A stretch of 64,000 nucleotides of DNA from a plasmid. The position numbers were made by a program. The DNA lies in assembly GCF_056712565.1 (NCBI RefSeq), contig NZ_JBWXXM010000002.1; one strand, written 5' to 3'. Below, piece by piece: positions 42,001 through 45,814 of this stretch (positions are counted from its first letter, which is position 1; every line of letters begins with the position of its first letter).

Positions 42001-45000
42001 TGCTCGAAAGATTCTATTTCAAGCGTCCGCTGAGCATGGAGTACGCGGCATGGCTACGTGTAATGTGTGCAGGCTTGTTATTGGTTTTTATTCAGGTTGC
42101 TCCACAATTTACACTTCTGTATACCCTTAAACTTGTCACGCTTATTAATCTTGGAATCCAGACAATGAAATTAAATGGCGTGTACAAATATAAAAGAACG
42201 GGAATTTTGCCTCCGGGAGGGGCACTCTCTAATCTCACCAGACTTAACCCGTTCAAGAAAAAATAAAGTTATGCGCCCGTGAGGGCGCTATTCATCAAAG
42301 GCATTTCGCATAAGCTTGATCATTGCTTTTTTACCAGCTTCAATATTACGAATGTAGCGCATAACCATTTCTTCATTCGACCAGTTCCCCATTTCCATAA
42401 TCTGTGGTAGCGAGTAACCTTCAATATTTAGCTGTATCGCTCCGCCTACACGAACGCTGTGCCCTGTCCAGTAACGAGTTTTAGTCTCATTTGGATAAAG
42501 CTCATTCCACATCTCTTTAAATGCTCGTAAAAGGGAATTTTTGCTGAGCATACCGGCATCGTCCACAGTGTCTTCTTCATCTTCATCGTTCAGAAGACTT
42601 TGCTTAGCACGATAGGGTAGGTTATGCCTTTTAAGAAGTTCAGATAGCTCATTCCCCTTACTCCGAAGCTTCCAGCCGGGTGGCATATAGCCTGTATCAT
42701 GGAAATTTACGGCCTGGAAAAGGAATTCATCCGGATGACTGTGCTGATCCATTTTCACGAGGTTCATCAATCTCAAGAGGCAGTTAGTTAACTGACGTGT
42801 CAGCCGGTAGGTAAGAAGTGTACTAATGTTCGTTTTTGTACGGTATACCGTCAGGTTAAATTCACCGGTCATACTATCCAGAGACAGATCTTTCAGACGT
42901 ATACGTCGAATTTCGGATGAACGGAGCAGTGTTTCAAAGCCTGTCCAGATCAGGCACAGGTCACGAAGTTTACGAACTGAGTTTGTAGTACTGCGTAACT
43001 TTATCAGAGCCTTGAGATCGCCAATAAGAAAGGGAGTTGCCTGTTTAGTCGTCTTTCGCTTCCGGGCTTCCGATTGTTTTAAGGCTTCCAGCATGTACCA
43101 TGCTTCAGACGTAATAATCCCGGGCAGGTTAAGCCCTTTTTTATGGATACTATTTAAGGCCTGAAGACAGCTGTTTATGCTGCTTCGTGACAATTTGCCT
43201 TCAAGATGCCCCATAAACGCAAGCAGAGCGTCCTCAGACACGGGGAGCGAACTTACTGGCCAGTCTGTATGCAACCGGGCATTCGCCAGATACCATTCGT
43301 TCCATACTCGTAGCCAGTGCAGATAGGTTTTAGCAGTGTTGTATCTCAGATGGGAAAAGTAACGGATCAAGCGTGAAAGCTGTTTATCATGGTTGCCGAA
43401 CGTTTCCAGCTGCTGATGCAATTCGCTTTCCGAAAACTGTCTGATCACTGATTGATTCTTCATCCTGCTCACCGGGATACACTGGTTTTAATTACAGGTC
43501 ATTTTAGCACTCATGTACCTGGTTATGAACAGGGTGGAAACAACGAAAAAGGTTGTGAAATCGTTAGGCTTAAGTGAAAAATGATATTAAGATTATCCCT
43601 GGCCAGTTGAGGCCTGTCTAAAGAAGGTTGATTATGTCTGACACAAAGCAGTCTTATTTAATGAAATTCCGTAAGTGTAGTTCGTTCGAAACGCTCGAAA
43701 AAGTATTTGAAAGGTTATGTGAAAAAAACTCGGGTGTCGCCTCTCTTGAAATTTCTGGTGCTTATGATCATCGTAAAGCCGAACTGACAATGAAAAAGTT
43801 ATATGACAAAGTTCCTGCGAGTGTGTGGACCTTTGTTCGCGAGTAATTATTAATATTGGCACAACAAAAAGACTGTGCCTAGATTTGAAAATAGTTTATG
43901 CCCCTTTCGGGGCTAAAGGCATTGTAATAGCCTGTCTTTTAAAGTTGTTTATTAAGTTCGGAGAAAAACTTTAATCATAAGCCAAGCCCACTGCTAAATA
44001 CATCCGATATTCTCCTTCATTTTATTAGAAGTGATAAAAGTTACTTTACCTAAACTTCTCTCTCAATATTTGTAAGGCTCTCATTTGATTTTTGTCAAAC
44101 ATTAATCTGGAAGACGGAAAAATCATTTCTTTTAATACGTTTTACAGAAATCCTCCTCCGTTATTTCGGATATAGTTTGAATCATTATCAAAAACGGGGT
44201 GCAGCCATGCGTAAGAGTTATACATTTGGTATTCCATTTGGACTCCAGCGAGAATCAGGACTCTTTTTAGATATTACAGAGGTCAGCCGGGGTATTGACT
44301 GTAACTGCATCTGCCCCGCTTGCAAAACTGATCTGTTAGCAAAGCAGGGGGAGGTCAAGCTTTGGCATTTCTCACACAGTACAGCTGTAGCCGGTGACTG
44401 TGATGGTCTGATGGAAGCCATCCGGGGAAAGATTATTGAAGTCATCAACGAGCACCAGGTTCTTGGTTTCCCAAATCTTCTCGCTGGCGACGATGGTGGG
44501 CCGGTTTCACTGAATGAGGTTAGTGGAAGCGGCAGTATGTTCGGAGGCACAGCTGATCTGTTCGTAAAGGTTAATGATTTATGTGTGGCCGTCTTTCTGG
44601 ACAGGGATCGCAGCATTTCAGAGAAGTTAACCTTTGACCATCTTCATCCTTCCGAAAGAGTTGCCGCATTGCGTATCGATCTTCCTGATATTGAATATGA
44701 AATCAGTCAGGTGCAGCTCGGGCGACGTAAAACAACATACAGTGAGTGCATTGAAAGCCTGATCATTGATGAGACCAGTTCCCGGGAATGGCTATATCAT
44801 CCATTAATGCATGAACTTGAATCTGAACCTCTTCAGGAGTATCGGGGACGGGAGCCTTCAGAGGAAGGGCCTCTTCTTCAGCGCCTTGCTGACTGTAAGA
44901 TGAAATTGCCTGATATCCTTCCGGGCAGTCATAACGCGCTAGTCAGGTTACAGCAGGATACGATTGTATGTCTGTGTCGGTTAACGGTTCGGGCTTATGA

Positions 45001-45814
45001 CATCGCTCAGACCGATGAATTTCCTTTGTTCCTTCGCTATTTCAGGTTGCACTGCCTGGAAAACAGCGAACATGTCAGTTACGAAAGACTGATCTGCTGG
45101 CAGGAAATGATTTCAAAAACCCAGGAAGGCCAGTCCTTGACACAAAACGAACTTGAATATCTTCATGAGATTGTCCGCATCGCCTTTTACAATCACCGGC
45201 TTAACAATGTCAGTATTTCAGATGTTAAAAACCATGACACTGGAAAGAAGAGCGGCAGGGTAGAGTCACAAAATTATTCACTTTTATAAATAACTTGGGC
45301 TTTGCGCATTAAACCCTTGCCGCAGGCGGTGTACCGCATATCCGGCACAGACAGTCAGTTTTTTCTGGCAGCTTAAATTTGACACTGCTTAATATAGTGA
45401 TTCATTAAACAGGTTCAGTATGCTGCCAGAACGTTTTAGTCGTAATGGGCGTCCGTTAGTTTTCAACTAACTGAACGACGACCAGCCTGCCGCCTTCCTC
45501 CTTTGACAGAACAAACTGAGCGTTATTCGTCAGTTCAATTTTTTCCCCAATGGCAATCTGTCGTTTATCCGGTAATGACATAAGCCCATTTATGCCTTCA
45601 TTTACTAACCACCACTGATCGTTATGGAAAACAAAATACCCAACTCGTTTCCTTTGTGCATCGGTTGTGCGCTCATTTGGCGCAATGAGGCGATTCACAT
45701 GCCACGCATAGATTGACTGCCCGCTCCACACCATCAACCGGTGGTCGTCAGGACGATAACTGCCTTCCTTTCGGGATGAATATAAATTTAGGGAAGGTGC
45801 GAACAAGTTCCTGA

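Follow-up and report, generated by a model that had tools for sequence, protein, structure and literature searches.

A stretch of 64,000 nucleotides from a plasmid of incompatibility group HI2 (IncHI2; NCBI RefSeq assembly GCF_056712565.1, contig NZ_JBWXXM010000002.1), called in its entirety the window here, carries a gene whose product, WP_001232449.1, is annotated identically in IncHI2 plasmids as a "hypothetical protein" of 360 amino acids (aa). Comparisons of sequence profiles place this protein in the CoiA superfamily, as a probable pseudo-nuclease in which a single residue of the catalytic set remains. Upstream of the gene lie, in order, the genes for a Tus homologue, two hypothetical proteins, and a Cre-like tyrosine recombinase (minus strand), followed by hha (plus strand) and the gene itself (plus strand). 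Downstream, on the opposite strand, are the kinase, PP2C phosphatase, TerY-C, VWA, TerD, VWA, and terW genes that form one end of the tellurite (ter) cluster. The first-pass annotation, made from the sequence alone, had set the gene beside the boundary of this ter island, which is indeed where it stands, the next gene downstream being the kinase gene that ends the TerY/TerD/TerW cluster. The 2.3 kb around the gene are 100% identical to the corresponding region of many Salmonella and Escherichia coli IncHI2 plasmids. The open reading frame (ORF) that had been delimited at 44177..45289 on the plus strand is present and, read from its TTG start, encodes 370 aa; its coding part can be refined. All homologues begin at the MRKSYT... 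encoded from the ATG at 44207, the ten residues upstream are found in none of them, and the RefSeq product starts at the same ATG. Thus, the true coding sequence is 44207..45289, and residues are numbered from this ATG throughout. The features at the locus are as follows.

43634..43846, plus strand: hha, encoding an Hha/YmoA-family nucleoid-associated regulator, the conserved upstream neighbor (from the annotation).
43847..44206, plus strand: AT-rich spacer between hha and the WP_001232449.1 gene, presumed to hold the latter's own promoter region.
44177..44206, plus strand: TTG-initiated extension of the ORF, probably untranslated (absent from homologues; RefSeq starts at the ATG).
44207..45289, plus strand: coding sequence of WP_001232449.1, 360 aa, CoiA superfamily, stop codon included (from the ORF, RefSeq, and the homologue starts).
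44300..44401, plus strand: zinc-finger module, residues 32-65, C32xC34xC36xxC39 ... W53 H54 F S H57 ... C65 (from the CoiA_N match and invariant ligand columns).
44402..44800, plus strand: restriction-endonuclease-like core of the PD-(D/E)XK fold, residues 66-198 (from the AlphaFold2 model).
44867..45208, plus strand: C-terminal helical domain, residues 221-334, distantly related to CoiA_C (from the model and hhalign).

The likeness to CoiA had first been noticed as a CxxC pair followed by WHFSHS near the N terminus, and it had been put forward on this short motif only. The signature is not a chance resemblance: residues 33-59 match the Pfam model CoiA_N (PF25164) with 32.5 bits (E = 6.3e-8), above the gathering cutoff of 26.3. 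In full, the motif reads C32-N-C34-I-C36-P-A-C39 ... W53-H54-F-S-H57-S, and in an alignment of 108 relatives C36, C39, H57, and C65 are invariant and C34, W53, H54, and F55 nearly so. The invariant C30, C33, H48, H51, and C57 of Bacillus CoiA form the same C-x2-C ... H-x2-H ... C pattern. Two extra cysteines, C32 and C34 (codons 32-34 at 44300-44308), precede the CoiA-type CxxC to give CxCxCxxC; these are shared by the IncH family and about 95% of the ~300-aa relatives described below, and are missing from Bacillus CoiA and most of the Burkholderiaceae-type proteins. C32 and C34, together with H54, H57, and C65, bring the potential ligands to seven, a number that would suffice to form another metal site.

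When 1.84 billion representative sequences were searched exhaustively with the profile, 4,029 proteins were retrieved at E ≤ 1e-3, 658 at E ≤ 1e-10, and 7 at E ≤ 1e-30. The close homologues form a narrow family of 12 clusters. The more distant relatives include two groups. The first consists of uncharacterized proteins of ~300 aa that align to residues 9-210 of WP_001232449.1; a Pfam scan of 87 representatives, sampled from the 658 proteins at E ≤ 1e-10, found CoiA_N in all 87 and DUF7828 in 56, and no further informative domain in this sample. The second consists of Burkholderiaceae-type proteins of 400-500 aa that NCBI names "competence protein CoiA family protein," with CoiA_N in 23 of 23 and CoiA_C in 15 of 23. 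In profile-profile comparisons (hhalign), the IncH family is linked to this second group at 99.4% (E = 2.8e-21, query columns 10-336), and the second group in turn to genuine Bacillus CoiA at 97.9% (E = 4.4e-13, 328 columns). Direct comparison of the IncH family with Bacillus CoiA gave 92.7% (E = 4e-7) over 36 columns, which cover the zinc finger only. The Bacillus CoiA set was fetched with a probe sequence, and its membership was checked by the precomputed Pfam architecture PF25164+PF06054+PF25166. Because this chain of profiles spans residues 10-336 of the 360, and not the motif alone, WP_001232449.1 can be shown to belong to the CoiA superfamily, although only remotely. It does not belong to the CoiA family in the strict sense, since both the PF06054 model and the catalytic glutamate fail: this model of the CoiA nuclease domain, found in all of the genuine Bacillus CoiA proteins, gave no match to WP_001232449.1 even at E ≤ 10. 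Thus, of the assignment to CoiA, profile searching upholds the N-terminal domain and the superfamily and not the nuclease-domain family. Scans with NCBIfam, PADLOC, and PHROGs returned nothing useful, the one match in PADLOC-DB v2 being a marginal, CorA-like one to the C-terminal helices (E = 0.002, 14.8 bits), and no relative was retrieved from the PDB by sequence, whether the query was the protein alone or the profile of 108 sequences. A search of the literature on WP_001232449.1 and on IncHI plasmids together with CoiA returned nothing relevant, nor a paper giving the gene a family. The placement of this gene, annotated everywhere as hypothetical, is new, and it makes the gene part of a large, catalytically degenerate branch of the superfamily that is apparently undescribed.

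The presence of a nuclease-like core after the zinc finger is borne out by structure prediction. AlphaFold2, supplied with the 108-sequence alignment, modeled residues 1-215 with high confidence (mean predicted local distance difference test score, 93.8; predicted template modeling score, 0.91). In the model, the zinc-finger module is small and beta-rich (strands 11-14, 20-22, 42-46, and 54-57) and is followed by the alpha-beta-beta-beta-alpha-beta core of the PD-(D/E)XK superfamily: helix 67-83; strands from 85-88 to 125-132, the last two forming a hairpin (118-122/125-132); strand 152-158; helices 159-170 and 178-187; and strand 193-197. The C-terminal third, seen in another model, comprises helices 221-229, 242-260, 271-283, 292-304, and 313-334 and resembles generic helical bundles; hhalign pairs it with the CoiA_C-bearing part of the Burkholderiaceae-type proteins. 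CoiA_C (PF25166) has no direct Pfam match in WP_001232449.1 itself, and it matches 15 of the 23 relatives so aligned. Foldseek searches against BFVD gave weak matches only, one of them named "Competence protein."

It is at the catalytic residues that the protein departs from active CoiA. CoiA has been described as an atypical PD-(D/E)XK single-stranded DNA (ssDNA) endonuclease with a C2H2 finger, and in Streptococcus pneumoniae the strand-2 substitution D95A and the strand-3 substitution E105A each abolish transformation (bioRxiv 10.1101/2024.02.06.579203). In our alignments, the invariant residues of Bacillus CoiA are E64, H68, K72, E89, D100, and E113-x-Q115, and those of the Burkholderiaceae-type proteins are E60, H64, K68, E112, D121, E134, and K145, with E60 equivalent to Bacillus E64. 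Read in the 108-sequence alignment at positions 69, 73, 77, 108, 117, 130, 135, 156, and 158 of WP_001232449.1, the relatives fall into the following classes.

Nuclease-signature class: E-H-K-E-D-E-H-E-D.
WP_001232449.1 and other IncHI2/HI1-type proteins: M-R-I-S-D-F-R-R-D.
Klebsiella-type group: L/M, K, K/T/R, G, D, F, S, E, D.
Most ~300-aa relatives: F/Y at 69, D at 117, Y/F at 130.

The three codons on which the argument turns are these.

44411..44413, plus strand: codon of M69, in the column of the helix-1 catalytic Glu (Bacillus E64); E in 11 of 11 Burkholderiaceae-type and M in 9 of 9 IncH-type sequences.
44555..44557, plus strand: codon of D117, the sole retained active-site residue and strand-2 "PD" Asp; near-invariant in the 108 sequences.
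44594..44596, plus strand: codon of F130, in the column of the strand-3 catalytic Glu (E113 of the B. subtilis group; by strand position, E105 of S. pneumoniae).

All nine residues of the nuclease signature occur in 14 of the 108 sequences and its E69-D117-E130 core in 18; the carriers include each of the 11 sampled Burkholderiaceae-type proteins as well as part of the ~300-aa group. At 69/117/130, the triplets seen most often are Y-D-Y (20 sequences), E-D-E (18), F-D-Y (15), and M-D-F (7), with aromatic residues at 69 and 130 being the rule in ~85 relatives. As the substitutions at these columns covary, they represent a coordinated catalytic loss rather than alignment noise. Every nuclease-signature relative has E in column 130, and the 14 IncH-type and Klebsiella-type sequences have F or Y there without exception; column 117, that of the RPD motif, is occupied by D in all but 1 of 83 ~300-aa relatives and in each of the 11 Burkholderiaceae-type proteins. 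In the model, D117 lies just before strand 118-122 and F130 within strand 125-132, which are the "PD" and "(D/E)xK" positions of the fold. At these positions, WP_001232449.1 reads D117 ... F130-L-D132, the helix-1 Glu is absent, and the Glu-x3-His-x3-Lys of CoiA helix 1 is replaced by M69, R73, and I77. The inactive class also keeps R73, Q78, R136, K193, W195, H198, and R200. Three shallow alignments disagreed on the register of the strand-3 Glu, pointing variously to F130, T142, or D144, with K140 also proposed among the shallower registers, and it was the 108-sequence alignment and the modeled strands that settled it at F130. Registers at D144 and K140 were rejected, as they would need a 10-residue gap inside a modeled strand; no family-wide conserved acid occurs in the T142, D144, and K140 columns, save in part at D144 (D/E in 8 of 9, G in 1).

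Since only the strand-2 Asp remains and the strand-3 Glu has become Phe, a pseudo-nuclease is the most likely state of the protein, and the nuclease role first proposed for it finds no support in the PF06054 search or at the catalytic columns (M69/R73/I77/S108/F130, with D117 alone left). The reading that we favor, with a probability of about 60%, is that of a diverged CoiA-superfamily pseudo-nuclease, encoded by an IncH backbone gene that follows hha, which most likely binds DNA with the help of its zinc finger and does not cleave it. The protein retains three parts, namely, a CCHH(C) zinc finger at the N terminus, the alpha/beta core of restriction-endonuclease type, and a helical C terminus with a distant relationship to CoiA_C. 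The catalytic set of its active relatives (helix-1 Glu/His/Lys, loop Glu, strand-2 Asp, strand-3 Glu) is cut down to D117, with hydrophobic or basic residues filling the lost positions (M69, R73, I77, S108, and F130). Single-stranded or branched DNA would be the likeliest ligand, because CoiA is an ssDNA/D-loop endonuclease, and it would be held through the zinc finger and left uncut. The protein may thereby act as a sensor, a blocker, or an adaptor in the nontransferring state of the plasmid.

Two features of the alignment weigh against this proposal: D117 is near-invariant throughout, from which a retained role in a charged pocket can be argued, and D132, D134, and an acid at position 78 are conserved within the IncHI2/HI1 clade. 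D132 shares its strand with F130, two residues further on, so that its side chain should point the same way, and a noncanonical site could be drawn from D117 with D132/D134 and E78. The protein would then be a still-active nuclease directed at incoming or foreign DNA, in establishment, exclusion, or defense; the restriction-like and SMC-like genes found in islands with some of the ~300-aa relatives, and the NTPase/DUF6933 cluster that precedes a 42%-identical homologue, could be cited in its favor. We rate such a remodeled active site as unlikely, because the extra acids are lost in the syntenic Klebsiella IncHI1B orthologues (N132, V/T/Q78). Furthermore, no equivalent of the Lys/Gln/Thr and no helix-1 Glu are present, aromatic residues at 69 and 130 are usual in ~85 relatives, and the profile results (PF06054 unmatched, the sole PADLOC match marginal, C-terminal, and CorA-like) point the same way. 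The defensive role suggested at first likewise gains nothing from known defense-system profiles, among which no convincing match was obtained.

The genomic contexts of the relatives are largely uninformative, with no partner gene shared among those of four ~300-aa relatives, and those of two nuclease-signature relatives telling us equally little. The sole informative large-contig context among the ~300-aa relatives is that of P0056, which has lost the catalytic residues and directly follows genes for a ResIII/DEAD/RE_endonuc protein and an SMC-like AAA_23 ATPase (L018 325-6954), in an island that also carries HipBA and a phage-type integrase; the three genes may constitute a system. The 42%-identical homologue P0048, from Salmonella plasmids such as CP053333.1, is the final gene of a tight same-strand cluster encoding a 552-aa protein, an AAA_16/nSTAND-like NTPase, and DUF6933, with P0048 18 bp further on (L022 1521-6038; L024 1-3888), a resolvase gene upstream, and kfrA and an RNase_T exonuclease gene downstream. 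This cluster looks like an operon, possibly one with a role in defense. In the Aeromonas media plasmid pMC64A (L008 4983-6499), a 95-aa CoiA_N-only ORF, truncated by insertion of ISAs18, divergently adjoins genes for WYL-domain, SNF2-related, and AAA ATPase proteins. Most of the ~300-aa proteins end in a second zinc ribbon, C..C...W.G...CP.C, within their C-terminal 40 residues, and Zn_ribbon_11 matches 14 of the 87 scanned.

In a tblastn search, 2,810 of 72,556 plasmid records matched WP_001232449.1, and 2,495 of these matches cover at least 80% of the protein. Across the IncH plasmids, the gene keeps company with its upstream neighbors. The block running from Tus through the recombinase and hha to the gene is retained in lineages whose proteins are 59% and 63% identical, where the DNA 3' of the gene is unrelated, and the same holds for the Klebsiella IncHI1B/FIB(K) lineage, at 34% identity. 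No ter genes adjoin the orthologues of the IncHI1, IncHI1B/FIB(K), and environmental lineages, which nevertheless keep the hha-side synteny. As the orthologues keep the hha side and differ downstream, the gene travels with hha and not with ter; it is an IncH backbone gene linked to hha and not a component of the ter island. In the IncHI1 plasmid R27, the orthologue (WP_001232452.1) is 73% identical, and a RepFIA-like replicon (repE) flanked by two copies of the insertion sequence IS1 (NC_002305, 155773-159190) sits exactly between it and hha, which indicates that the ancestral pair was split there by a composite insertion. Linkage to hha was rejected as a trait of the protein family as a whole, since full-length homologues outside IncH plasmids, at 42% (P0048) and 36% (P0049) identity, have no hha neighbor. 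The gene is under purifying selection: relative to the R27 orthologue, nonsynonymous divergence (dN) is 0.18, synonymous sites are saturated, and 59% of the residues that are conserved have different codons.

The R27 orthologue is the sole source of experimental data for this family. It occupies 154290-155363 of R27 and, from the gene order next to the IS1 ORFs R0177/R0178, it is very probably ORF R0176, the gene just below this IS1; hha is R0182 and the Cre-like recombinase R0183. R0183 had been considered as the orthologue and was discarded, since a supplementary table gives it as the Cre-like recombinase. In the R27 papers, R0176 is described as being of "unpredicted function." Published transcript data give it a signal of 154 at 25°C and 807 at 37°C (−5.24-fold), and in a transfer-derepressed htdA mutant it is the only R27 gene downregulated at 25°C (63 versus 154), its signal being lower at 37°C as well (109 versus 807); hha of R27 is likewise higher at 37°C (Gibert et al. 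2020, PMC7366339). These values indicate that R0176 expression is anticorrelated with the transfer regulon. Deletion 15 of R27 (150,566-156,499, R0168 to R0178) did not markedly reduce stability in E. coli (PMC4853401), which suggests that R0176 is dispensable for vegetative maintenance. If the R0176 assignment holds, WP_001232449.1 would likewise be expressed mainly at 37°C, when conjugation is off, and be dispensable for vegetative stability. In a broader and distinctly speculative scenario, a large clade of "dead CoiA" pseudo-nucleases of plasmids and genomic islands recognizes single-stranded or branched DNA by means of the zinc finger and the disarmed nuclease fold and, in IncH plasmids, serves as a switch between maintenance and transfer, expressed inversely to the transfer genes and marking or protecting plasmid DNA or cooperating with Hha/H-NS.

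A closer tie to Hha, in which the protein would be a regulator or adaptor of the temperature-dependent silencing of IncH plasmids and its nuclease-like fold an interaction scaffold only, is compatible with DNA binding. In each of four divergent IncH lineages, the gene follows hha on the same strand after a gap of 85-360 bp, both R0182 and R0176 are higher at 37°C, and the response of R0176 in the htdA mutant is opposite to that of nearly all other genes. Nevertheless, the homologues without an hha neighbor and the parting of the R27 pair by the RepFIA segment with no apparent harm both speak against such a partnership. So does the spacer in the window, which suggests separate transcription: it is AT-rich (31-34% G+C at 43900-44200) and 360 bp long, versus only 85-190 bp in other IncH lineages, and it contains a perfect GC hairpin, GCCCCTTTCGGGGC, at 43900-43913, ~50 bp 3' of the hha stop codon. 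This hairpin could serve as a terminator, albeit one lacking a T-run, or as a protein-binding site; a consensus promoter scan gave nothing convincing immediately 5' of the WP_001232449.1 gene. On balance, we hold a partnership with Hha to be doubtful. Membership in the ter island, suggested by physical adjacency in IncHI2 plasmids, is highly improbable given the orthologues with unrelated, ter-less DNA downstream and the opposite strand of the ter-side genes. Equally improbable is a decaying or spurious ORF, for which one could cite the bare "hypothetical protein" annotation and the tolerated R27 deletion, against conservation over the full length at identities between 34% and 100%, the substitution pattern and the coverage of most plasmid matches given above, a confidently predicted fold, and a regulated, measurable transcript in R27.

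In the window, a copy of IS5, with its transposase ORF at 45860-46840 and its terminal inverted repeats at 45789-45807 and 46972-46990, interrupts the "InaA-family" kinase gene that ends the TerY/PP2C/TerD cluster, leaving minus-strand fragments at ~45456-45790 and ~46990-48154; the kinase gene is uninterrupted in many otherwise identical IncHI2 plasmids. On the other side, the block of Tus, two hypothetical genes, the Cre-like recombinase, and hha (~40091-43846) accompanies the gene in all IncH lineages examined. A homologue of the replication-terminus protein Tus next to a recombinase gene hints at a terminus/dimer-resolution region, and this could influence which DNA structures WP_001232449.1 meets. 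In the Klebsiella IncHI1B/FIB(K) plasmids, a group II intron with an ltrA reverse transcriptase/maturase gene lies between the tyrosine recombinase and hha (L005 4661-6148, L009 2658-4145, and L014 661-2148).

Plasmids of the IncHI2, IncHI1, and IncHI1B/FIB(K) groups carry much clinically important resistance and, in Klebsiella, also virulence. A passage in the R27 deletion study puts at about two-thirds the share of R27 ORFs without similarity to known genes (PMC4853401). One conserved gene of the IncH backbone now gains a family, a predicted fold, and the prediction that its product binds zinc and DNA and does not cut. For the CoiA superfamily, recently shown to resolve the D-loops of transformation, these findings point to a large branch in Proteobacteria and mobile elements with coordinated loss of the catalytic center. 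Provided that R0176 is indeed the orthologue, it would be the one R27 gene whose response to losing HtdA runs counter to that of the transfer regulon.

Among known systems, inactive PD-(D/E)XK modules such as the RAP domains and the RecC nuclease-like domain resemble WP_001232449.1 in fold and presumed logic only, with no sequence relationship. The ~300-aa CoiA_N/DUF7828 proteins share with it the CxCxCPxC zinc finger, the core, and mostly the same catalytic loss with D117 kept, yet they lack the helical C-terminal domain, often have instead a second CxxC...CPxC zinc ribbon, and occur in varied contexts. Its nearest relatives with the nuclease signature are the proteobacterial CoiA family proteins, such as that of Paraburkholderia phymatum pBPHY01 (L007:4989-6410; P0013 to P0043). 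Both have CoiA_N, the core, a K/R-x-W-h-[YF]-[HY]-P motif near residue 195, and a helical C terminus; however, the proteobacterial proteins keep the invariant catalytic set, are 400-500 aa long, are chromosomal or megaplasmid-borne, and have no hha neighbor. CoiA (YjbF) of Bacillota (PF25164 + PF06054 + PF25166), the ssDNA/D-loop endonuclease of transformation, shows the same order of three modules and shares the zinc-finger signature, the restriction-endonuclease-like core, and the strand-2 Asp (D95 in S. pneumoniae, D100 in Bacillus). Unlike it, WP_001232449.1 has no PF06054 match, has the two additional cysteines C32 and C34, and bears M69/R73/I77 and F130-L-D132 in place of the helix-1 Glu/His/Lys and the strand-3 Glu-x-Gln. 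Finally, the two differ in setting: in contrast to CoiA of Bacillota, whose gene is chromosomal and belongs to the competence regulon in naturally transformable bacteria, the gene described here resides on IncH conjugative plasmids of Enterobacterales, and its R27 orthologue is regulated by temperature and HtdA.

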